From: an uncultured Gemmatimonadales bacterium
GTDB taxonomy: Bacteria > Gemmatimonadota > Gemmatimonadetes > Gemmatimonadales > Gemmatimonadaceae
NCBI GenBank assembly: GCA_963793305.1
Contig: CAWBZV010000003.1
Span: forward strand, 1,152,001 to 1,216,000
Direction: 5' to 3'
Length of the DNA: 64,000 nt
Within the stretch, counting starts at the first letter, position 1. Each line of letters begins with the position of its first letter. Below, one piece after another: positions 42,383-56,139 of this stretch. The position numbers and the translations under genes were made by a program. The notes beneath the pieces were generated by a model, which saw only the letters and a list, made by a program, of their open reading frames with translations, did no database searches and was not told the DNA's origin.

Positions 42383-42452
42383 GAGACTTTTCTTAGGCTG
42401 GTACGTCCAGTGATCGTTGCGCATCAGCGAGGACGGCATCACGACTAATCGT

Positions 42453-44189
42453 ATGTTCGCCGAATGGCGCGCGCGCTTCGCGACGCTGCGCTTCGGCGAA
42501 AAAATGCGAGTACTGACCCTGGTCTCGGGCGGCGGGTTCGCGCTCGTGGTCGTCGTGACGTTGTTGCTCGGCATCTGGAATGATCTGTTGTTCACGCGGA
42601 TCCAGAAAGGATATTACCCGTCCGTCGCCCTCAGCCGCACCCTGCGCGAGGATCTCGCCAGCACCCAGCGGGCACTGCAAGACGCGGCCGCCGCGCGCGA
42701 TGGCGATCAGCTGACGTCGGCCGACAGCATCGTCACAGGCATGCGCGCCACGCTCCGCGGCGCGCGCGACGTCCCTACCGTGTCCGCGGACCGGATCGAT
42801 CGCCTGGACAGCGCGGTCGCGACATACGGCGCGCTCGCCCACGGTGTGACGGCACGCATGATCGCCGGCGAGTCGGGCGACGCGATCCTCGGTGGCATCC
42901 GGACGATGTCCGAGCACTACGTCGCGATTCGGGACACGCTCGACGCACAAGCCCAACGCGATGCGAACGCGATCGCGCATGCGTTTACCATGGTCCGCTG
43001 GCTGCAGCGCAGCGCCATCCTCGTGAGCGTCCTGGTCATGCTCGCGGCGCTGGCCCTCGTGCTCTGGCTGAGCCGCACCACCGAGGAAGCGTTCGCCGAG
43101 CCGCTGGCGGACGCGGTGCGCGTCGCCGAAGCGCTCGCGCGCGGTGAGATGGCGACGACGACGGCCGCCGCGAACGAAGACGAAGCTGGCCAGTTGCTGC
43201 GCGCCATGAACGGCATGACCACGTACCTGTCCGAGATGGCCGCCATCGCACAGGAGATCGCCCACGGCGACCTGTCCACGCCGGTCGCCCCCCGATCCGC
43301 CCACGACGTGTTCGGCAACGCGTTCGCCGATATGATCGCGTACCTGCGAGAGAATGCCGGCGTGGCGGACGCGATCGCCGCGGGCCGCCTCTCGGTCACG
43401 GTCCGGCCGCGCTCGGCCCGCGATACGTTCGGCAACGCGTTCGTCGCCATGCTCGCGACCCTCACGCGCGTCATCGGCGAGCTCAAAAAGAGCGCCAGCG
43501 CCACGTCCACGACCGCCATCGAGCTCGTCGCCGCGTCGAATGCGCTCTCCGGCACCGCGTCGGACGAAGCGTCGAGCGTCGAAGAAACGACCGCGAGCCT
43601 GGAGAGCATCAGCGCGGCGGCGGTCCAAAATGCCGACAGCAGCAAGGCCGTCGAGGCCATCGCCCGGCAGGGCGTCACGCGGGCCGCCGATACGCGGCTG
43701 GCCATGGACGAGATGAGCACCGCCATGCAGACCATCACCAACGCGCTCAGCGTGATCGACGCCATCAGCCAGCAGACGAACCTGCTGGCGCTCAACGCGG
43801 CCATCGAGGCCGCGAGAGCCGGCGACCAAGGGCGTGGGTTCGCCGTGGTCGCGGCCGAGGTGCGGACGCTAGCCGAGCGGAGCCGCGAGGCGGCGGGGCA
43901 GATTGGGACGGTCACCGTGTCGAGCCGCGACACGGCGGCGCGCGCCCGCGAGCTGCTCTCGACCCTCGTGGCCGCCATGGAGGAGACCGCGAGCCAGGTG
44001 CAGACCGTGAGCGCCGGCTCAGCCGACCAAGCGTCGGCCCTCGACGCCGTCCAGCGCGCGGTGGCGCACGTCGATCACATCGCGCAGGAAAATGCCGCCT
44101 CGGCGCAGCAGCTGACGGCGATGGCGGCGCGGCTCTCCGAGCAGGCGGGGACCATCACCCAATTGATCGGGTTCTTCGCGGCCGCGTAA
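42453..44189 (+). CDS. Methyl-accepting chemotaxis protein
   Basis: Two TM helices, HAMP repeats, [29 protein letters not shown]. Confidence 0.95.
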
Positions 44190-44248
44190 GAAGACAAATG
44201 TCTCACCAGTGAGATGTTGCTTCACGCCCGCAGGCCCGTCTCCGTAGT

Positions 44249-45385
44249 ATGAGACCACACCTCTTGCGCTGTCTCGGCGCCGCCGGCGTGCTCGTGCTGA
44301 GCGTTCCGCGCAGCGGCCGCGCCCAACTCGATTCGACGTTCCTGTCGCGGCTATCCATTCACGGCTATCTGACGCTCGGCTATGGCATTTCCGGAGCGCA
44401 GCCGCAGCTGGGACTCCCGACCGATGGCAGCGTGGACTACGATCGCGCCGCCCTGCTCGGCCAATTCGCGCTCGCCTCGCACAGCCACCTGGTCGTCCAG
44501 GTCGCCCACCGCGACCTCGGCACCGAGAACTCGCTCTTCAACGAGCCGACATTCATTCTGGACTGGGCGTACTTCGAGCAGCGCTTCGGCGACAACACCC
44601 GCCTCCGCGTCGGCCAGGAGCCGCTCCCGATCGGGATCTACAACGAGATCCGCTACGTCGGCACGCTGCTGCCATTCTACCGCGCCCCGTACACGACGTA
44701 CAGCGAGGGCTCGTACACGCAAGAGAATCTCCAGGGTGCGATCTTCACGCAAACGATCGAACCCCACGGGATGTTCCCGGTCGATTTCAACGCCTGGGCC
44801 GGCCAGTACAACTACGCGGAGAAGGGAACGGTCACTGTCAACGGCGCGACGACCACGGCGTCCGTGCCAGCGACCGCGCACAACGTCGTCGGCTCCTGGA
44901 TCTGGGTGCGTACGCCGCTCGACGGATTCCGCTTCGGTGGTGGCATCATGCACTACGTGCCCGAGGGTGGCGTCACCGAGCAGGTCCTCGGCAAATCTGA
45001 CGAGACGGACTCGTACGCCTCGGTCGACGCCACGTTCGATCGCTTTCAAGTGCGGTCGGAGGTGTCCCATGCCCTCCGCTCCGGCGGCAAGCTGAATTCG
45101 ACCCAGGGATACGCCCAGGTTGGCGTGAAGGTGATCGACCCGCTCACGCTCAACGCGCAGCTTGAGCTCCAGCACGTGCACTACGCCGTCGCGCCAGGCT
45201 ATGCCGCGAACGCCGACCTCCAGCACGATTTCGGGTTCGGCGCCAATGTCGCGCTGCCCTGGTCCGCGGTCTTCAAGCTCGAAGGCCATGCGACACGCGG
45301 GTACGACTATGACACGAATCCCTCCGTGTTCGGCCCGCCGACGAAGGGGTCGTACGGCATTGCCAGCCTCGCCTTTATTTTCTAA
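44249..45385 (+). CDS. Putative outer-membrane porin-like beta-barrel
   Basis: Signal peptide, LDWAYF, G...LP.G.YNE..YVG...P, terminal F. Confidence 0.7.
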   Translation: MRPHLLRCLGAAGVLVLSVPRSGRAQLDSTFLSRLSIHGYLTLGYGISGAQPQLGLPTDGSVDYDRAALLGQFALASHSHLVVQVAHRDLGTENSLFNEPTFILDWAYFEQRFGDNTRLRVGQEPLPIGIYNEIRYVGTLLPFYRAPYTTYSEGSYTQENLQGAIFTQTIEPHGMFPVDFNAWAGQYNYAEKGTVTVNGATTTASVPATAHNVVGSWIWVRTPLDGFRFGGGIMHYVPEGGVTEQVLGKSDETDSYASVDATFDRFQVRSEVSHALRSGGKLNSTQGYAQVGVKVIDPLTLNAQLELQHVHYAVAPGYAANADLQHDFGFGANVALPWSAVFKLEGHATRGYDYDTNPSVFGPPTKGSYGIASLAFIF

Positions 45386-45386
45386 C

Positions 45387-45809
45387 ATGACGCGCCGTCT
45401 GATTGCGGTACTCGTTGCGCTCGTTCTCGCGCGGCCGGCGGCCGCCCAGGATGTCGTCGTCGTCGTGAACAGCGCCAACGCGGCCTCGTCGAGCACGAAG
45501 GCCAACGTCGCCGCCCTCTTCCTGAAACACACGACGAAGTGGCCCAATGGTTCGGCCGCCGTCTGCGTCGACCAGAGTGAGGGCGCGGCCGTCCGCGAGG
45601 CATTCTCGAAGAAAGTGCTCGGCAAATCCACGAGCGCCGTGAAGGCCTACTGGCAGCACCAGATCTTCTCCGGCCACGACCTCCCGCCAGTCGAAAAGTC
45701 CGGCGATCAGGCCGTGCTCGACTTCGTCCGAACGAATCCCGGCGCGGTCGGATACGTAAGTCCCGGTACGTCCCTCGGCAGTGGAGTCAAGGCGCTGTCC
45801 GTGGAGTAA
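45387..45809 (+). CDS. Small periplasmic PBP-like protein (PstS-like half domain)
   Basis: Signal peptide, VVVVN, LFLK...W, YW...IFSG...PP, V..NPGAVGYV. Confidence 0.75.
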   Translation: MTRRLIAVLVALVLARPAAAQDVVVVVNSANAASSSTKANVAALFLKHTTKWPNGSAAVCVDQSEGAAVREAFSKKVLGKSTSAVKAYWQHQIFSGHDLPPVEKSGDQAVLDFVRTNPGAVGYVSPGTSLGSGVKALSVE

Positions 45810-46747: not shown

Positions 46748-47246
46748 CCAGTAAGTCGCGCGACCGGACGAAGAAGGTGACCACCGCGCGCCGTTGCTCG
46801 TTCAACGGCCGCGCCGCGCTGACGCTATCCGCGGCGGCACGAACCGCGGCCGCGGCTTGTGCGAGATCCGGCGCCCGATCGGTCTGGAGCACCGACAGCA
46901 CGTGCCCCACGCGGTCGAACGCATCGTGCGCAATGTCCGCGTCAACGGCACCCGGTGGCGCCACGTCGAGCGCCCGGGCCAACGTCCGCACGGTCTCGAC
47001 CTGATCCGGCGAGCTCGGTGCGGTCGCCGCGATGGCGTCCGCCAGCATGCGGAGCCCGCTCGCCGCATGCGCGTCGGCCGCGTGCGGCGTCCACGGGTTG
47101 CCGAGGGGCTGCGCGGTGAACGCGGTGAGCGCGACGAGCGTCGCCTTGACGCCACCGCGTTGATTCCGCGTCGCGACGCCCACACTGAGTAACGCCAGGA
47201 GCACGAGGCCCAACAGCCACGCCACGGTTGTGCGCGGAGCCGCCAC
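46734..47246 (-). CDS. Hypothetical membrane-anchored protein
   Basis: ORF begins 1 bp after the LytTR stop; N-terminal TM. Confidence 0.55.
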   Translation of the reverse strand: MAAPRTTVAWLLGLVLLALLSVGVATRNQRGGVKATLVALTAFTAQPLGNPWTPHAADAHAASGLRMLADAIAATAPSSPDQVETVRTLARALDVAPPGAVDADIAHDAFDRVGHVLSVLQTDRAPDLAQAAAAVRAAADSVSAARPLNEQRRAVVTFFVRSRDLLVSVQ

Positions 47247-47247
47247 G

Positions 47248-48004
47248 CTACCCTCGCGGGAGGCGATCGCGATACTGCGGGCTCATCGGTAGCTCGGTGC
47301 CATCGACCAGCACGACGCGATACTCGCCAGAGACGAGCGCGCGCAGTTCCTTCACGTGATCGATCCGCACGATGAACGAGCGATGCACGCGCGCGAACTG
47401 CGTGGGGTCGAGACGGGACTCGATGCCGGAAATCGTCGACCGAATGAGAATGGCACTTGGTGCCGACATGCAGCCGCAGATAATTCCGGTCGGCCTGGAC
47501 CCAATCGATCGCGCGCGTCGAGACGAAATACGTCCGCCGCCCCATGGTGACCGCGACCCGGTCCAAGTAGACCGTCCGCTCGCGCAACTGATCGACGAGC
47601 TGTCGGACCTGCGTGCCCAGGGCGCCGCCATTCGTCGCCTCCGTCGCGGCCAGCGCGGCCCTCGCCCGATCGAGCGACCGCTCGAGCCGCTCGCGATCGT
47701 ACGGCTTGAGCAAGTAATCGGTCGCGTCCGTATCGAACGCGCGCACCGCATGCTCGGCGTGCGCCGTCACGAAGATCACGAACGGTGGCGGCCGTGAGCC
47801 GAGCCGGTCGAGCATCTGAAACCCATCGAGCTCGGGCATCTGGATGTCGAGGAACAGCACATCGGCCTCGCTGTCCGGCAGCACCTTGAGGGCGTCCTCC
47901 GGGTCCTCGTACTCGGCGACGACCTCGATATCGGACTGCTCGGCGAGCATCGCCTTGAGGCGGCGTCGCGCAAGGGGTTCATCGTCCACAACCATGACTT
48001 TCAT
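47248..48004 (-). CDS. LytTR-family response regulator, frameshifted near 47450
   Basis: DDEPLAR, LDIQMP, FVTA, DYLLKP; C-terminal LDP.QFARVHRSFIV in the next frame. Confidence 0.92.
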
Positions 48005-49101
48005 GTCAGCTCGAGTGGAACGGTGATGGAAACGACAGTGCCGCGGGGAGCGGCGGGAGAGAGTTCGAGGGTGCTCATGCCGGGGAACATCGCGGCCAGT
48101 CGCGCGCGCGTACTACCCAACCCGACGCGCTCCCGGCGGTCGCTCTCGGGCGGTGGACCGATGCCATCGTCGCGGACGCTCAACACCAACAGGCGGCCAT
48201 CGCAGCGCGCGGCCACGTCAATGTGGCCCGCGCCGCGCCGTGGCGCGATGCCGTGCGAGATCGCGTTCTCGACCAGCGGCTGCAACAGAAACGAGGGCAC
48301 CCGTGCGTTCATGACGTCGGGATCGATGCGCATCGACACCGACAGCCGATCGCCGAACCGCATGCGTTGGAGCTCGACATACGACGCCAGCCGGTTGAGC
48401 TCCGTGCGGAGCGTCACGTGCCCGGTCGTCTCGGCGTCGAGCAACGTCCGCAGCAGATCGCCGAGGCGCACGAGCATCGCCTCGGCGATGATCGGATCCT
48501 CAGGCACGAGGGCCGCGATCGCGTTCAGGGTATTGAACAGGAAGTGCGGCTGGAGCTGGAGCGACAGGGCGTGCAGCCGGGCATCGGCCAGCGAACGCTC
48601 GAGCTGTACGGAGAGCACGCGCTCGCGCCGGGCGCGGTGCACGCGCGAGAGCACCGCGTATTCCATCAACAGCACGAGCGCCTGCTGCGCGTTCGTCTCG
48701 AACAGATAGCGGAACGAGAGCAGCGGCGAGGCGAGGGCCGATTTGGCGGCGTCGGACAGCGTGCTCCCCGCGACCCAGAGGCCACGGACCATCCACGCTT
48801 GCGCCGCCGCGGCCGCGATCCCAACAACGGTCCACCCGGCGAGGTTGAGCGCGATGCGCGACCGCGGACCGACAAGCGGCACTTGGTCCAGCGCCAGGAA
48901 CACGAACGGCGTGAGCGCCAGCCAGAGCGCCAGATCGGCGCTCGCCCCGAACACGATGTGCGCCGCGGCGGGATCGAACCCGACCGCGCGATTCGCGGCC
49001 ACGATGGGCCGGATCGTTGCCAGCTCGATCACGAGCTGCAGTCCACCGACGGCCGCCCACTCAGCGAGTGTCGCCGTCCGCGCAACTGATTGAGCGCTCA
49101 A
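48001..49101 (-). CDS. LytS-type sensor histidine kinase
   Basis: QLQPHFLFNTLN, LLQPLVENAI.HG, DDGIG, GLG; TTGA overlap with the upstream stop. Confidence 0.92.
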   Translation of the reverse strand: MSAQSVARTATLAEWAAVGGLQLVIELATIRPIVAANRAVGFDPAAAHIVFGASADLALWLALTPFVFLALDQVPLVGPRSRIALNLAGWTVVGIAAAAAQAWMVRGLWVAGSTLSDAAKSALASPLLSFRYLFETNAQQALVLLMEYAVLSRVHRARRERVLSVQLERSLADARLHALSLQLQPHFLFNTLNAIAALVPEDPIIAEAMLVRLGDLLRTLLDAETTGHVTLRTELNRLASYVELQRMRFGDRLSVSMRIDPDVMNARVPSFLLQPLVENAISHGIAPRRGAGHIDVAARCDGRLLVLSVRDDGIGPPPESDRRERVGLGSTRARLAAMFPGMSTLELSPAAPRGTVVSITVPLELT

Positions 49102-49439
49102 ACCGATTTGGCCTCCTCGGCCGTGACGAACACCCACCAGACCTGATCCTCGAGCCCTTCGGTGAGCGGCTCGCCACTATATAGTGGCAGGACGCGACAC
49201 CCGCTCGCCGGCAGGGCGCGCAGCGTGATGCGCCTCAGCGGTTGGTTGACCCGCGCATACGCCACCGGCACGAGAACCGTGCCGCCGTCACTTAACGCGA
49301 CAATGAAGTACTCCGCGTTCCCAGCAGCCCGGCTCTGGACAATCGACTGCACCGACCCGACGGCCACTCGATCCGAGCTATAAACTGTCCAGCCCCGAGA
49401 GTCGGTCATGCGGGCTACGGACATGCGGCCTACCGTCAT
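49098..49439 (-). CDS. PRC-barrel domain protein
   Basis: RGWTVYSSD...VG.V..I......EYFIV......VLVPVAYA. Confidence 0.7.
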   Translation of the reverse strand: MTVGRMSVARMTDSRGWTVYSSDRVAVGSVQSIVQSRAAGNAEYFIVALSDGGTVLVPVAYARVNQPLRRITLRALPASGCRVLPLYSGEPLTEGLEDQVWWVFVTAEEAKSV

Positions 49440-49451
49440 GTGGCCTACGGA
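49407..49451. repeat. Three imperfect 15-bp tandem repeats
   Basis: CATGCGGGCTACGGA / CATGCGGCCTACCGT / CATGTGGCCTACGGA. Confidence 0.75.
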
Positions 49452-49553
49452 ACAACCGGGAGGCGCTAGCGGCCAGACGACTCGGGCCGAATCCCGCCGG
49501 TCGCGGGACGTCCACCGGAAATCCGGGGACGGCCCTGCTCGGCGCAGCCGAGC

Positions 49554-51441
49554 TCAGTCCAACCGACCAGTCGAGCGGTGCGAAGCGCTGCCTCGACGCG
49601 CCGCGGAGCGGCGCTCCCGCACGACCTCCGCCGCGAGGTCGATCAGCATACGGACGGTCGGATGCGGCTCGTTGTGCCGGAACAGCAACTCCAATCCCGA
49701 CGGAATGGCGAGCTGCTCGATCGGCACCGCGACGAGCCCCGTATAGTGTCGTCTCGCGCCAAGCGTCCACCCATGCCCCTGCGATACCACCACGCGGGCC
49801 GTGTGCAGGCTATCGAAGGTCCGAATGTGGCGCGGCCGAAACGGGAGCGCGGTGATGACCGCGTCGTAAAAGTGCGGTTCGCCGTCGCGCCGGATAAAGA
49901 GCAACGGCACGTCGGCGAGATCCTCGGCGCGCAGGATCGCATGTCTCGCCAGCGGATGGGTCGGGGCCAGCAACGCCGAATCAAAGACATAGCTCGCGAT
50001 GCGCATCTGCTCGATGCCCGTGGGGACCGTGGCATGCAGATGCCCGACGCCGAGATCGATACGTCCGTCGAGCAACGCCAGAAATTGGTCAGGGGTCGGC
50101 AGCTCCTCGACGACGATCTCGATATCGGGGTATCGCTCGGCCGTGCGGCGCAGCACTTCCCGCATGACGGGACTGGCGTGCATGATGTCGACACCGCTCA
50201 ACACGCACCGCTGTCGATGCAATCGCCCAATGCGCGCCGCTTCGGCCACCGCCGCGTCGACCGCCCCGAGCACTTTCGATGCGTCGTGGGCGAGCGATGT
50301 CCCGGCCGCGGTCGGCCGTACGCCGCGCGGCAGGCGATCGAAGAGGTGCAAGTCGAGCTCGCGCTCCAACTCTTCGATGTGCCGGAAGAGCACCGATGGC
50401 GCGACGCCCAGTCGCTGTGCCCCTCTCGTCAACCCGGCTTCTTCCATGAGCGCGGCGAGTGCGCGCAGATGATGCAACTCGAGCCCGCGGGTCTTCGGTG
50501 CGTCACGCGCGACGGTCGGCGGAGGTGCCGGCGTCGCCCCGTCCCGGACGGCTTCGAAGAACGTCGACGATCTGCCGGATGATCGGCCGCTGATCGTCGG
50601 CGCGCCACATGACGGCTTCCCAGAGCGGCACGGCGAGCCCGCGGACCGGCACGCCCACCGTGCCGTCCGGCGACACCTGCACGAAGCGATTCGGCAACGG
50701 TTGCCATCCTTGGCCCGCGGCGACGGCGAGAAAAATGGCGTACACACCACTGTGCGTATCGACCAACGGCAATGTGATGCCGAGCCGCGCCATGGCGTCG
50801 ACCAGCGAATCGTAGACGTTGGGATGGTACGCGCGCGGCACCCACAGCACTGGATACGCATTCAACTCGTGCGGCTCGATGATCGATCGCGAGGCGAGCG
50901 GATGCGTCGACGACAGCAACGCGACCTCGATGCGCGCGTCGGTGATCCGCTCCGTCGCGATGTCCCGCAGGTCCGGCGGTGGCTCGACCCCGAGGGCCAC
51001 GTCAAGCGTGTGCCCGAGGAGCCCCCGCCATTGGCTCGGCCCCGCTTCGAGGTCCTCGATCGTGAGCTCGATGTCAGGAAATTGTTCGCGGATGATCGCC
51101 AGTCCGCGCTGGACCAGGGCCGAGGCCAATGACCCGCGCCCCACGCCGAAACGGACACTGCCGCCCATGCCGTGAGCCGCGCGCGCAGCCCGGACGGCGG
51201 CGCCATCGATCTGCGCCAGCATCGCGCGCGTCGCGGACAGCAGCGCCGCGCCGGCCGGCGTCGGCTCCACGCCCTTTGCGTGCCGAGCCACGAGGTCGGA
51301 GCCGATCGCGCGCTCGAGCAGTTTGAGCTGGCGCGAGATCGCCGGTTGCGCGACGCCCAGCTTCGCCGCCGCGCGACCGATCGTCCCCTCCTCGGCCACC
51401 GCGACGAAGTAGCGAAGCTGACGGAGATCCAGCCCGCTCAC
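49554..51441 (-). CDS. Tandem LysR-LysR fusion protein B, frameshifted near 50560
   Basis: HTH1 LDLRQLRYFVAVAEEG...QPAISRQ; HTH2 GLELHHLRALAAL...; each followed by a substrate-binding domain; GTGA overlap with gene A. Confidence 0.85.
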
Positions 51442-53279
51442 GGCGCCCGCTTGCGCCGCGCGTGGCGAAGGATCGCGCGCACGGCCCGCGCGGCGGGTTT
51501 CGGCTCGTCGCGCCGCCACAGCATCTCGAGGCCCCACGGAATCGTGAGACCCACGAGCGTCCGTCGGACGGTGCCCCGCGGCACGCGCGCCGACCGCGAC
51601 AGAAATCCCAGCGTCCACCCGCGTCCCTCGGCGGCGAGCCGCCACAGGACCTGAATGCTGTTGACGGTGGTTTCGAGGCGGGGGACGAGGCCAATGCGAG
51701 CGAGCGCCTGCATGATCTGATCGTAGAACTCGGGCTGAAAGCTGCGATCCATGAAGAGAAACGGGACGTCGCGAAGGTCATCCGCCGTCAGCGTCCGGTG
51801 CGACGCCAGCGGGTGGTCTTCCGCGATCAGCGCCGAGTCGAGCCGGTCGACGCTGAGTTGTTGCCGGGCGAGACTCGCGGGCAGCGGCGCCCCGACCATC
51901 ACATGGCCGATACTCAAGTCGATCGTACCCGCCAGGAGTTCCCCCCGCTGGCGGGGCGTCGGGACATCTTCGATGACGATACGGACCGCCGGCAGGCTGA
52001 CGGCGGTCTCCCGGAGCAGCACGCCGAGGAGCTTGCCGACCTCGTTCGTGGCGACGGCGCCGATCACGCAGCGCATCGACATCTCGTTGCGCATCCGCGC
52101 CGCGTCGGCCGTCAGCGCGTCGACGGTCGTCAAGACGCGCATCGCATCGGTCGCCGCCGCGAGGCCCGCGTGCGTGGGGACCGTTCCTTTCGCACCCCGC
52201 GTGATCAGCTGGACGCCAATCTCGTGCTCGAGGTCTCTGAGTTGCCGCGAAAGTGCCGGTGGGGTCAGGCGCAGCCGCTGCGCGGCGCGCCCCAGGCTCT
52301 CCGACTCTACCACGGTGGCCAGAGCGCGCAACTGTCTCAGCTCCAGGCCCCGCAGCACGTCCCGTCGAGGTGCCGCGCCATTCAGTGGCGCCGGGCCGCC
52401 ACGAATTGTCTCGATGGCGCGGAGCACATGTGGCCGGGTCTCACTCGCGCGCCACATGAGCCCCGTGGCCATCGTGACATGCAATCCCTCCACTGGAATC
52501 GCGACGGTGCCCGCGGGCGACATCTGCAATGCTTGTCGCGACCACAGGGTCCACCCAGCGCCGGAGCCGACGGCGAGCCAGACGGCTTTCGGGCCAGAGT
52601 AGCGTGAACTGAGCGGTGGCTTGATTCCCAACTGTCGCAACGTCTCGTCGACCACGCGTGGCGAGTCCGGGTGCCACTCAGCTCTCGGAAACAAGAACGG
52701 CACCGTGGCCAGATCATCGGGACGCAGCAGCGAGAGTGAGGCGAGCGGAGTCCCGATAGGGACGATCGCGCAGTCGAACGGCACGTCATAGAGCGCGGCC
52801 CACGCGAAGTCGTGCGTCGTCACCGGTGACCGCAACCCGATCGCGAGATCGAGCGCTCCCGCGCTCAGCTGCGAAAACTGTTCAGGTCCAGGCTCGACCT
52901 CGCGAATCTCGAGCTCGACATCGGGGAGTCGCTCTCGAATCGCGGCCTCCGCGGGCTGAATGATCTCGAGCCACCAGGCGGATCGCCCGACACCGATGAC
53001 GAGTCGTCCCGTGAGCCCATGTGCGGCATCGGCGGCCCGTCGAACGATCGACTCGGCCTGCGCGAGTATCACGCGCGCACTCGATGCGATGGATTCACCG
53101 ACCGATGTCAGCTTGACGCCAGCCGACTGTCGCGCGAGCAACTCCAGTCCCAGCTCGCGCTCGAGGGCGTGGATCTGTCGCGAGAGCGCGGGCTGGGCGA
53201 CACGAAGCCTCGTCGCCGCCCGACTCACGCTTCTCTCCTCCGCGACCGCTACGAAGTACCGCAGGTGCCGGAGATCCAC
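51438..53279 (-). CDS. Tandem LysR-LysR fusion protein A (intact, about 613 aa)
   Basis: HTH1 DLRHLRYFVAVAEE...QPALSRQI; HTH2 GLELRQLRALATV...PPALSRQLRDLE in one uninterrupted frame. Confidence 0.92.
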   Translation of the reverse strand: MDLRHLRYFVAVAEERSVSRAATRLRVAQPALSRQIHALERELGLELLARQSAGVKLTSVGESIASSARVILAQAESIVRRAADAAHGLTGRLVIGVGRSAWWLEIIQPAEAAIRERLPDVELEIREVEPGPEQFSQLSAGALDLAIGLRSPVTTHDFAWAALYDVPFDCAIVPIGTPLASLSLLRPDDLATVPFLFPRAEWHPDSPRVVDETLRQLGIKPPLSSRYSGPKAVWLAVGSGAGWTLWSRQALQMSPAGTVAIPVEGLHVTMATGLMWRASETRPHVLRAIETIRGGPAPLNGAAPRRDVLRGLELRQLRALATVVESESLGRAAQRLRLTPPALSRQLRDLEHEIGVQLITRGAKGTVPTHAGLAAATDAMRVLTTVDALTADAARMRNEMSMRCVIGAVATNEVGKLLGVLLRETAVSLPAVRIVIEDVPTPRQRGELLAGTIDLSIGHVMVGAPLPASLARQQLSVDRLDSALIAEDHPLASHRTLTADDLRDVPFLFMDRSFQPEFYDQIMQALARIGLVPRLETTVNSIQVLWRLAAEGRGWTLGFLSRSARVPRGTVRRTLVGLTIPWGLEMLWRRDEPKPAARAVRAILRHARRKRAP

Positions 53280-53292
53280 GTGGTACCGCCCA

Positions 53293-53359
53293 TGCCGAAA
53301 CGGCAAGGAAGCCCCAAAAAACAAGTATTGGCCCCCGCTCTACTTATGCCGCTAGCATA
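53293..53359. promoter_or_regulatory. Candidate LysR boxes (T-N11-A dyads)
   Basis: TGCCG-AAA-CGGCA (53293-53305) and TATGC-N5-GCATA (53345-53359) in the divergent intergenic region. Confidence 0.55.
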
Positions 53360-53384
53360 GCAGCACGCAAGAGGAGATCACATC

Positions 53385-54182
53385 GTGGCTGAAGAAGATC
53401 CGTGTTGGCTGGCGAACGAAGGGGATGACGAGTCCGAGACGGCGCGCAAGGAGTTGATCGAGCTCCTGCTGACCCCAGGCGCAATCGCGACGTCCGTGCA
53501 GCCTATAGTTGATTACCGCACGACACCGCCCACGAACTGGGGGGTCGAGTGCCTGACGCACGGCCCGCGGGGCAGTGTGTTTGCCGATGCCGAGGTGCTG
53601 TTTCGCACGACACGCGTGGCCCGGCTGGAGGCGGAAGTGGACCGGGTGTGCGTCGCGATGGCGTTGCACTCGATGCGTCGCATCGCCCTCCCGTCGCGCA
53701 TTTTCCTGAACGTTCACCCGTCGACGCTCAGTCGCGACGCGTGGTTCCCGGCGTACCTGCGGGAAGTGGCCGAGCGATGGCGGATCGGCGTCGAGCGACT
53801 GACGGTCGAGATCGTCGAGCACGATCGGCAAACGCTGACGGGTCGCGTGTTACGGGCGGTCAACGCGCTCCGGGAGATCGGCGTGTCGGTCGCGCTCGAC
53901 GACTGCGCGGCCGACCTGGCGCACGATCCGATGCTCGTCGCGGTCCGCCCGGAATTCGTGAAGATCGCGAAGCAGGTCATCTGGGGCGCGCGTCACTCGA
54001 ACGCGGGGTTCCGCCGGTTGGAGCGCCTCGTGGACTCGACGAGCGCGCTGACCACGCTCATCGCCGAAGGCATCGAGACCGCCACCGATCTGGAGATGGT
54101 GCGGAGCCTCGGCATCTCACTCGTGCAGGGCTTTTTCGTCGGCCGCCCGGTCGCGATATCGGCGCTGCACAGTGAGCGGTAG
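53385..54182 (+). CDS. Stand-alone EAL-domain protein, partly degenerate
   Basis: QPIVD, ECL, FLNV.P, EIVE, ALDDCAAD, VKI, IAEGIET, VQGFFVGRP. Confidence 0.88.
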   Translation: MAEEDPCWLANEGDDESETARKELIELLLTPGAIATSVQPIVDYRTTPPTNWGVECLTHGPRGSVFADAEVLFRTTRVARLEAEVDRVCVAMALHSMRRIALPSRIFLNVHPSTLSRDAWFPAYLREVAERWRIGVERLTVEIVEHDRQTLTGRVLRAVNALREIGVSVALDDCAADLAHDPMLVAVRPEFVKIAKQVIWGARHSNAGFRRLERLVDSTSALTTLIAEGIETATDLEMVRSLGISLVQGFFVGRPVAISALHSER

Positions 54183-54827
54183 CCGCTCGATCGCATAGCG
54201 AAGCATGGTCCTCGGCATATGGCCCGCGTGCGCGTCGAGAAACCCGTGGAGTGTGGCGGGGGCGCGCTTACCAAGCTCCCGGAGCATCCAGCCGGTGGCT
54301 TTGTGGATCAGGTCGTGCTCGTCGGCGAGCAGCATCGACGCGAGCCGCACCGTGTCCCGGTACTCGCCCCTCTTTATAAAATGGTGCGTGGCGATGATCG
54401 CGATCCGTCGATCCCACGCATTTCTCGATCGGGCCAGCACGTCGAGCACTTGCCGGCCCTTCGTCGTCAAGTGGGCCCCGACAATCCCGGGAGCGGAACT
54501 GTCGACGAGATCCCAGTTGTTGATATAGCGGCGGTGCTTCATGTACACCCGATAGATCGCGGCGCGCTTGAGCGGCTCCGCTTTCGTGTAGGCGCTGACG
54601 AGGATCATGAGCGCCAGGTGCCGCTCCTCATGCACCCGCGACCGGAGGAGCGGCGTCACCTCCGTCAGCGACAACGCCCGATACTCGCGCGCGAGTGTCC
54701 GTAAGACCGGTACGCGAATGCCGAGGAACGGCTCAGCGCTCTTGAAGTATCCCTGCAGAAATCGCGCGCGCTCCGGCTCGGCCAGGCTACGCAGACGCTG
54801 CCTGATGGTGGACACGCGCGTCGTCAC
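54117..54827 (-). CDS. DNA alkylation repair protein (AlkD-like); start approximate
   Basis: FLGIRVP, INNWDLVD, W.RRIAI, HDLIHKATGWMLRE, MPRTMLRYAIE. Confidence 0.9.
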   Translation of the reverse strand: MTTRVSTIRQRLRSLAEPERARFLQGYFKSAEPFLGIRVPVLRTLAREYRALSLTEVTPLLRSRVHEERHLALMILVSAYTKAEPLKRAAIYRVYMKHRRYINNWDLVDSSAPGIVGAHLTTKGRQVLDVLARSRNAWDRRIAIIATHHFIKRGEYRDTVRLASMLLADEHDLIHKATGWMLRELGKRAPATLHGFLDAHAGHMPRTMLRYAIERLPLTVQRRYRDRAADEKALHE

Positions 54828-54862
54828 AAAAGAGAGAATATCCGCCCAACCTGACGGCCAGG

Positions 54863-55687
54863 TTACGGGCGTCGGACGCGCACATTCCCCTTGAATGTTC
54901 GAACCGTAATACGCGCCGAGCCATGTCCGACGACCAAGGACAGCTGCTGACCCCGCCCGGAAGCTCCGGCGATCGGCCGCACGGCCGGGATATCCGAGAC
55001 GATAGTTCCAAGAACCGTCGTCACATCGCATTGGCCGCCGAGGGTGGACGTGAGCGCCAGATCGACGGTCCCGGCGTAGTCGTCGATGTCGACCAGACCG
55101 ATATTCCCAGCATCGCCGACGAACCGCACGTCCCCGTTCACGGTGCTGACCCGTGCCCGCTCCAGACCAGTGGTCGCCACGTCGATCGCGCCACTGACGG
55201 TCGACGCGGTCAGGTCGCCGACCTGGCCGCCCAGGGTCAGACGCCCCTGACCGGTACGCGCCCGGACCCATGGTGCGGTGACCGCGATATTCACTTCTCC
55301 CGAGATCGACTCCGCTTCGAGGTCCCGCACTGTGCCGCCAAGGTGGATGCGGCTCGACACACCGTAGAACCACCCCGACACGTCCGTCGCCTCAATGTCG
55401 GCGCTGACGGCCTTGATCGACACGAGGCTCGATCGAGGCACATAGACGTCCAGCGTCGCCGACCCGGAGTCGGGATCGACACTCACCTTTACGCCGCCGT
55501 GCAGGGCGCCGTAGTAGAACGTCGAGCCACGCGCGACGGTGCCGCGGACGAGGACCGTGTCCTTGTCCCAGCCCACGAGATGTACGCGGCCGGCCGGCAC
55601 GAAGATCTTGACGCCCGCGCCCGGTGCGAGTGCCTGGCGGCGCTCGATCGGCGGTTGCAACAGGAGAAGCAGGGCGAGGGCGATCAC
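54863..55687 (-). CDS. DUF4097-like beta-strand repeat protein
   Basis: Signal peptide; SISG, TVSG, TVNG, TFKG repeats. Confidence 0.8.
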   Translation of the reverse strand: MIALALLLLLQPPIERRQALAPGAGVKIFVPAGRVHLVGWDKDTVLVRGTVARGSTFYYGALHGGVKVSVDPDSGSATLDVYVPRSSLVSIKAVSADIEATDVSGWFYGVSSRIHLGGTVRDLEAESISGEVNIAVTAPWVRARTGQGRLTLGGQVGDLTASTVSGAIDVATTGLERARVSTVNGDVRFVGDAGNIGLVDIDDYAGTVDLALTSTLGGQCDVTTVLGTIVSDIPAVRPIAGASGRGQQLSLVVGHGSARITVRTFKGNVRVRRP

Positions 55688-56139
55688 GAGGCGTTCGCCA
55701 AGAGCTTCATAAGGTCCACCTTGTGGGCGTAGGCCTCGGCCAGGAGTTGCGCCAAGGCAGGGTCATTTGGGCGCCGAGCCAACTCGGCCCTGAGCTCGGT
55801 GATCGCGCTGTCGATCGTTCCCAGACTCGCTCTGACCGAGGCTTCCGTTTCTGGCCGGAGCTCGCCGCGCCTCAGCTCCAGCTCATCCAGCAGATCTCGT
55901 TCTACCCGCGCGTCGTTCGAGGCATCCGCGGAATCCACCACGGCACGCACGGTCGCTGGCGCGACCTGCGTGACGTTGATGGCTGATCCCGGCCGGTGCA
56001 GCACTATGAGCACGATGGCCGCCGCGGCCGCAAGGCCAACGATCGGCCCGATCACGCGCCAGCGACGCTTGGCTTGGATTCGCCCCCGAATGCCAGGCCA
56101 CAGGTCATGGGGTGGGTCTATCTCACGCTTAAAGTTCAT
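55684..56139 (-). CDS. Putative membrane anti-sigma factor
   Basis: PPHDLWPGI..RI, one TM helix; directly downstream of an ECF sigma gene. Confidence 0.7.
   Translation of the reverse strand: MNFKREIDPPHDLWPGIRGRIQAKRRWRVIGPIVGLAAAAAIVLIVLHRPGSAINVTQVAPATVRAVVDSADASNDARVERDLLDELELRRGELRPETEASVRASLGTIDSAITELRAELARRPNDPALAQLLAEAYAHKVDLMKLLANAS

Follow-up and report, generated by a model that had tools for sequence, protein, structure and literature searches.

The LysR-type regulators make up the largest regulator family in bacteria, and its members are usually about 300 amino acids (aa) in length and act as homotetramers. Those of the GalR/LigR type have two N-terminal helix-turn-helix (HTH) domains in about 400 aa, with one effector domain and no full tandem. 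Described here is a locus from an uncultured Gemmatimonadales bacterium (GenBank assembly GCA_963793305.1, contig CAWBZV010000003.1) at which each of two adjoining genes, A and B, codes for a chain that contains two complete LysR units. The locus is at positions 49,554 to 53,279 of a 64,000-nucleotide stretch (the window; contig positions 1,152,001 to 1,216,000) and faces a divergent gene for a stand-alone EAL-domain protein.

The solved structures closest to both units are PDB entry 7w06, BenM, CatM and CbnR. These share with the A and B units the HTH_1 plus LysR_substrate arrangement, a QP..SRQ recognition helix, a two-site operator of the ATAC-N7-GTAT type with one site over the inferred −35 element, and a divergent target. 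The known proteins, however, are about 300 aa long, with one unit, four identical subunits and metabolic targets, whereas A and B each have two distinct units and signalling neighbours. The longest among the 60 PDB matches listed is 332 aa, and none of the NCBIfam LysR models (25 listed per protein) reaches its cut-off for A or B; scores of A against the cut-offs are 230/430 for AlsR, 196/356 for HcaR and 152/600 for BenM.

The closest precedent in design is Mce3R of Mycobacterium tuberculosis, a double TetR repressor. According to the relevant passages of PMC11667970, it is a head-to-tail fusion with two non-identical HTHs on an asymmetric site, and it dimerises further. It differs from the double LysRs in fold and family, in having one ligand-binding domain, and in that these passages describe no coupled second double gene. 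LysRNt, considered as a double LysR precedent, is an ordinary single LysR in the text of PMC7837296 that describes it. Literature searches found no tandem full-length LysR, but subscription journals were mostly outside their coverage, so absence from print is unproven; the words ‘fusion’ and ‘tandem’ were not found in a 2024 review on LysR regulators. The family to which A and B belong is real and uncharacterised, and its conserved operator and signalling regulon are new. The genes are as follows.

51438..53279, minus strand: gene A, double LysR-type regulator with a GTG start, 613 aa in a single open frame; HTH1 at 53273-53094, effector domain 1, a Pro/Ala/Arg-rich linker, HTH2 at 52340-52164, effector domain 2
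49554..51441, minus strand: gene B, double LysR-type regulator; HTH1 at 51426-51250, HTH2 at 50477-50301; 628 aa in metagenome contig L272
50560..50560, plus strand: extra T that splits gene B, an assembly error

The original prediction, made from the letters of the window, read A as two HTH plus effector-domain units in one frame, and Pfam bears this out with two HTH_1 and two LysR_substrate stretches within 613 codons. It also had B begin on the stop of A, and the GTG start of B (51441-51439) does overlap the TGA of A in a GTGA at 51441-51438. All four HTH_1 domains are above cut-off, two per chain, and in both proteins LysR_substrate follows a linker helix with TxxG. A and B are thus two-unit proteins of 613 and 628 aa, and do not fit the usual one-unit LysR of about 300 aa; the other 15 HTH_1 matches in the source genome are every one single-unit. 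The sequence motifs that the prediction cited were all found, and the four effector domains it considered different have pairwise identities of 26–39% (26–29% between the two units of one chain).

The window copy of B consists of two frames with one LysR unit in each, and B was predicted to have the layout of A once one base is removed. The frameshift is an assembly error and B is intact, since the base is missing from contigs of two sequencing runs and from L272, and both genes are intact in the congeners G401, G404 and G405. The two runs come from different studies; X1 (depth 7.8/7.8) is possibly the source sample and X2 (5.7/5.7) belongs to a separate study. The deletion does not appear in runs X3 and X5, where the X3 pieces listed stop beside the site and no X5 piece spans it. 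L272 is 99.9% identical to the window across 7282 bases, with five substitutions, and the only indels are extra Ts in the window at 50560 and 47449; its intact B of 628 aa has the two-plus-two domains by Pfam. Two single-base errors within 7.3 kb might suggest that assembly also made the fusions, or that gene B is such an error or else a pseudogene. The chance of this is negligible, as both errors break genes and fuse none, and fused frames recur in independent contigs and in most long homologues. An AlphaFold2 model of A has four confident domains (mean predicted local distance difference test score 89.6, predicted template modelling score 0.68) and a low-scoring linker at about residues 295–312. 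The linker between units is Ala/Pro/Arg-rich and variable in the family, with gene A as the shortest example.

By sequence comparison, A and B are members of a Gemmatimonadota family of double LysR regulators of about 630 aa. A protein search gave 692 matches among 8000 scored candidates, the best 120 being mostly 609–715 aa with near full query coverage, and a profile search of 1.84 billion representatives gave many more full-length clusters within its best 150. The domain order HTH1, effector domain 1, HTH2, effector domain 2 is present in 260 of the 273 long candidates, and thus the homologues are fused, as had been supposed, rather than separate genes. A search with a unit-2 alignment found 48 loci, 47 of them titled Gemmatimonad- and the remaining one ‘bacterium’. 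The ESM Atlas has a 64-member cluster of 632 aa, mostly from Gemmatimonadota, with an automatic name only. The family is patchy: members turned up in 24 of the 401 genomes taken from the taxonomic family of the window and, at the phylum level, in 15 of 401, a lower bound given that three candidates were scored per genome. Three genomes (G048, G335 and G077) have two or three double LysR genes on different contigs, each opposite its own signalling gene.

A tree built from 183 units places all 79 second units in a single clade (support 0.999), separate from first units and from single LysRs, which points to one old fusion before the A/B split. The original prediction had proposed a fusion followed by a duplication. 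The first part stands, in that the fusion is older than the split, but a simple recent tandem duplication giving A and B is ruled out: a topology holding them together as sisters was rejected by the approximately unbiased (AU) test (p-AU 4e-6, for a group named after an earlier tree was seen). Three other double LysRs of 625–644 aa (P0249, P0257 and P0275) have the same two HTHs and two effector domains as A and B, but score far lower (33–69 bits) against the family profiles; they are likely separate fusions outside the Gemmatimonadota family. Two single LysR genes in G421 (L231:5379-7252) are coupled stop-to-start opposite a LuxR-type gene and may be an unfused heteromeric pair. They were rejected as the unfused ancestor, as they group with single LysRs and have no operator.

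The genomic setting of the double genes is conserved too. The original prediction took in neither the operator nor the association with signalling genes that runs through the family. Upstream of A are the following.

53292..53306, plus strand: operator box 1, ATGC-N7-GCAA, which fits T-N11-A and adjoins the start of A; centre at about −66 from the inferred EAL transcription start
53314..53328, plus strand: operator box 2, CCAA-N7-GTAT, 22 bp from box 1, an imperfect T-N11-A in the window; centre at about −44
53328..53358, plus strand: inferred EAL promoter, TTGGCC (53328-53333), a 19-base spacer and TAGCAT (53353-53358), assigned by eye from an alignment
53385..54182, plus strand: gene for a stand-alone EAL-domain protein of 265 aa, divergent from A and the likely target; loop 6 (DDCAADLAH) departs from the consensus

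At 51 of 57 loci, the double gene has a divergent signalling gene ahead of it, within 500 bases. The count covers the distinct loci with an upstream gene call, some of which stop close to a contig edge, and excludes duplicates, the genes for B, three loci that are truncated and a pair of single LysRs. The genes facing the doubles encode EAL, receiver-only, histidine or hybrid kinase, CheC-like, GAF and GGDEF-EAL proteins (the CheC-like genes and three EALs were assigned by BLAST). At least six unrelated kinds of gene occupy the target position while the signalling class stays constant, and several targets head chemotaxis-type operons. Among genes divergent from single LysRs, 0 of 83 have a signalling domain of the families listed, with 5 of the 83 lacking any match. 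A published survey reports that small-molecule binding and transport are enriched beside LysR genes (PMC7446807).

Active EAL proteins have DDFGTGYSS as the loop 6 consensus. The window's EAL protein still has its metal ligands, with E55, N109, E142, D172, D173, K193, E228 and Q248 all retained and the R after ExL replaced by H; its non-consensus loop 6 makes enzyme activity uncertain, and the protein may bind cyclic-di-GMP rather than cleave it. The stand-alone EAL proteins opposite double LysRs (window 53385-54182, L102, L168-L173, L184, L217 and L270) form a group of relatives in which loop 6 departs from the consensus, and in L102 and L270 the EAL gene leads an operon of the CheY/CheA/methyl-accepting chemotaxis protein (MCP) type. 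Elsewhere (L105:9992-10501, L106-L109, L189 and L203), the facing gene encodes a 170–220-aa protein with no Pfam match and 30–37% identity to a CheC/CheX protein, which in L105-L107 is followed by a hybrid kinase gene.

The space between the divergent genes carries a conserved two-box sequence. A motif search of 59 upstream regions found the word CAATAC and a longer pattern, with a likelihood of 340 compared with 46–50 in shuffles. CAATAC, on the minus strand, is the most conserved word of the family and is the outer half-site of box 2. Toward the regulator, the family pattern reads ATAC-N7-(weak) and, 22 bp further, ATRC-N7-GCAT, with fixed spacing. In held-out scoring with similar sites excluded, 44 of 58 double-gene regions reached at least 15 bits; the same score was reached by 5 of 104 regions beside single LysRs and by none of 290 shuffles. 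The window operator, at 37.7 bits with its own genus excluded from training, is the best site in the 5.7 Mb genome; the runner-up has 22.0 bits, and column-shuffled matrices top out at 14–23 bits. No second family-type operator stands above the controls in the genome, and B is without a site of its own.

Box 1 is likely the anchor site and box 2 the activation site. The sliding-dimer model places the anchor site near −65 (PMC11495319), and in BenM and CatM, which use ATAC-N7-GTAT sites, site 2 lies over the −35 element (PMC6628147). Three single LysRs of other phyla (L020, L032 and L061) have the same CAATAC-N17-ATRC operator layout, which suggests that a double LysR reads an ordinary tetramer footprint. 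The palindrome TATGC-N5-GCATA (53345-53359) was also considered as an operator, but is not retained in G405 or L274.

The explanation that best accounts for the whole, and that we hold to be probable, is that two double chains pair to form the equivalent of a LysR tetramer, bind at 53292-53328, where the two boxes lie, and regulate the divergent EAL gene upon sensing small-molecule effectors, a homodimer of one double chain likely being sufficient. What is observed is the layout of the domains, the unbroken frames, purifying selection on eight domains, the two conserved boxes and a signalling neighbour; DNA binding, assembly of two chains and ligand sensing are predicted. Two chains per operator are likely, because two boxes need four HTHs and a double chain has two. 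Within a chain, unit 1 would take the outer half-site and unit 2 the inner, weaker one: HTH1 does not vary and conservation is highest at the outer half-sites, whereas HTH2 and the inner half-sites vary. The recognition helix of HTH1 has A-Q-P..R in 79 of 79 units, and its glutamine (Gln) in QP..SR is retained in all 258 rows of the family alignment.

How LysR subunits come to adopt compact or extended shapes is described as unresolved in PMC11495319. In ordinary tetramers, identical subunits would take the two shapes at random; the fusion may fix them by position. A hint of this is the mobile GxxG hinge, which is kept in 98–99% of first units but in 69/64% of second units; in the AlphaFold2 model of A, the second linker helix continues straight into the effector domain.

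Purifying selection is seen on all eight domains of A and B, out to a synonymous divergence (dS) of about 1, and within the genus the ratio of non-synonymous to synonymous divergence (dN/dS) of the effector domains is mostly 0.08–0.23, with one comparison at 0.42. Effector domain 2 has a family-wide motif, PFLFxxRxFxPxFYD, and may sense a shared ligand; effector domain 1 is more variable, with a mean top-residue frequency in the pocket region of 0.42 across the family compared with 0.51 for domain 2. This low conservation would suit a double chain that sits as a monomer on one box, one of its units degenerate or structural, and acts as a one-ligand sensor, and Mce3R, with two HTHs but only one ligand-binding domain, offers a parallel (PMC11667970). 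We find such an arrangement distinctly improbable, given two operator boxes at a fixed 22-bp spacing and two effector domains that are both constrained and confidently folded.

Several results weigh against paired double chains switching a signalling gene from the two boxes. A coevolution analysis (258 rows, effectively about 130) gave no excess inter-unit signal at the expected interfaces; pairs with z >3 make up about 1% of the expected inter-unit and intra-unit blocks alike, which leaves the analysis uninformative. The A orthologue in L274 retains the HTH2 Gln, yet has the same changed half-site, TTGC, which is at odds with the half-site assignment. Fourteen of the 58 double-gene regions fall below 15 bits, and a consensus promoter scan with spacers of 16–18 found no promoter for the EAL gene, for which the proposed elements are 19 bases apart. 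Of the six loci without a close signalling gene, two have one 1.0–1.2 kb off and four have none. It should be pointed out as well that the double-LysR loci, being of common origin, do not count as independent cases, and that the single-LysR controls, from the first locus scan, comprise 9 from the source genome, 2 from relatives and 72 from other phyla.

The presence of two double genes raises the question of whether they work together. The original prediction took A and B as a possible functional unit, for which there is no support so far: 53 of the 57 distinct loci have a lone double gene, and A and B, 39% identical, are not sisters. The pair was seen at four of the 57 loci, all in the window's genus, where four of six genomes have it. 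A metagenome scan gave seven loci, five with the pair and two with the solo relative P0026. In quick trees, A groups with P0024 and P0172, and B with P0025, P0026, P0027, P0060 and P0171. P0026, a close relative of B, is a solo gene with two canonical HTHs; opposite it are an EAL gene and an operon of the chemotaxis type, and its operator is the same. One double gene per locus is, on this distribution, the ancestral and usual form, and solo genes with a full operator indicate that a homodimer of one double chain is enough in most lineages. The A-B pair would be either an old duplication retained only in this genus or a later juxtaposition. P0030 (A-side) and P0060 (B-side) may be a second pair, each being on an ENA contig 118,311 bases in length that is probably shared by both.

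The HTH2 of B (APSVLFRHI) was thought to be degenerate. It is altered, with changes at several recognition-helix positions, but it is not decaying: the changed helix is fixed in 13 of 13 B rows (near-duplicates included), and its dN/dS of 0.03–0.08 is the lowest observed and makes it the most conserved domain of B. The recognition-helix Gln, which from work on BenM we take to contact a base (a literature search gave no passage on this contact), is lost from HTH2 in 15 of the 17 A rows and in each of the 13 B rows, near-duplicates again included, as against 7 of 228 other doubles. The nearest relatives of both lineages retain it, and thus the losses look independent.

Three properties favour joint action of A and B at the same operator: their GTGA coupling, the presence of just one such operator, and the changes that HTH2 has undergone in parallel in both. 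The coupling is retained in G401, G404, G405 and L271-L275, and neither gene occurs alone in these loci. It could be that A and B prefer each other, forming a heterodimer equivalent to a tetramer, with four different effector pockets and specialised HTHs, that integrates several ligands at one operator, in line with the original prediction. The three properties just named fit such an A:B pair and separate A:A and B:B homodimers alike. Purifying selection on both genes to dS of about 1 and the possible second pair on the ENA contig also speak for the heterodimer. The heterodimer must, on the other hand, be reconciled with a solo gene as the family norm, a pair confined to one genus whose linkage may be inherited synteny, the distance between A and B, and the two A rows that retain the HTH2 Gln. 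Of 216 LysR pairs from E. coli, just 37 showed cross-interaction, and this under overexpression; the authors doubt that most of these are functional (PMC3004787). We therefore regard the heterodimer as rather unlikely and separate A:A and B:B homodimers at the operator as somewhat more probable, their chance being slightly under even.

A further possibility is that A alone controls the EAL promoter and that B is an operon passenger with its own targets, reached via its altered HTH2, or acts mainly off DNA. A holds the usual position beside the operator, and an HTH2 that is changed at several helix positions yet most conserved fits a new specificity. The HTH1 of B is canonical (AQPAISRQ), however, and should still read ATAC, and the genome has no second site, although the matrix would miss a site of new specificity. 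We consider this division of labour improbable.

Each position of a chain with two different units can be mutated separately, and the question of compact and extended shapes becomes directly testable. Such a chain is also a scaffold for two-input biosensors, and the family suggests that signalling operons are under a further level of regulation, not yet described, in a soil phylum that is common and mostly uncultured. A four-pocket A:B complex, if it exists, would be the first functional hetero-oligomeric LysR of such design within the searches made. Several metabolites would then be brought to one decision on a cyclic-di-GMP-related gene, in the most elaborate form of a double-LysR system by which the sensing of metabolites is coupled to signalling of the chemotaxis and two-component types.

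Two other features adjoin the 3′ end of B.

49537..49614, no strand assigned: genome repeat, palindromic and about 78 bases long, that is inserted within the 3′ end of B and provides the B stop codon in the window
47248..49439, minus strand: genes for a PRC-barrel protein, a LytS-type histidine kinase and a LytTR response regulator, downstream of B and on the same strand

The repeat is missing from gene B of G401, G404 and G405. It is predicted to fold into three hairpins and has 104 BLAST matches in the genome, 67 of them of at least 60 bases. It appears similar to repetitive extragenic palindromes or miniature inverted-repeat transposable elements; an Rfam scan of 47000-56000 gave nothing above threshold, and no Y1 transposase for it was found in the 92%-complete genome. 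The PRC-barrel, LytS and LytTR genes are possibly co-transcribed with A and B. The second single-base assembly error, at 47449, breaks the LytTR response regulator gene, which is intact in L272 and encodes 251 aa. Further along (42417-45809), the window encodes an MCP, a protein of 378 aa without annotation and a small protein of the periplasmic-binding-like kind. The MCP and this small protein both have relatives near double LysR loci in other genomes (L105, L107, L196 and L270).

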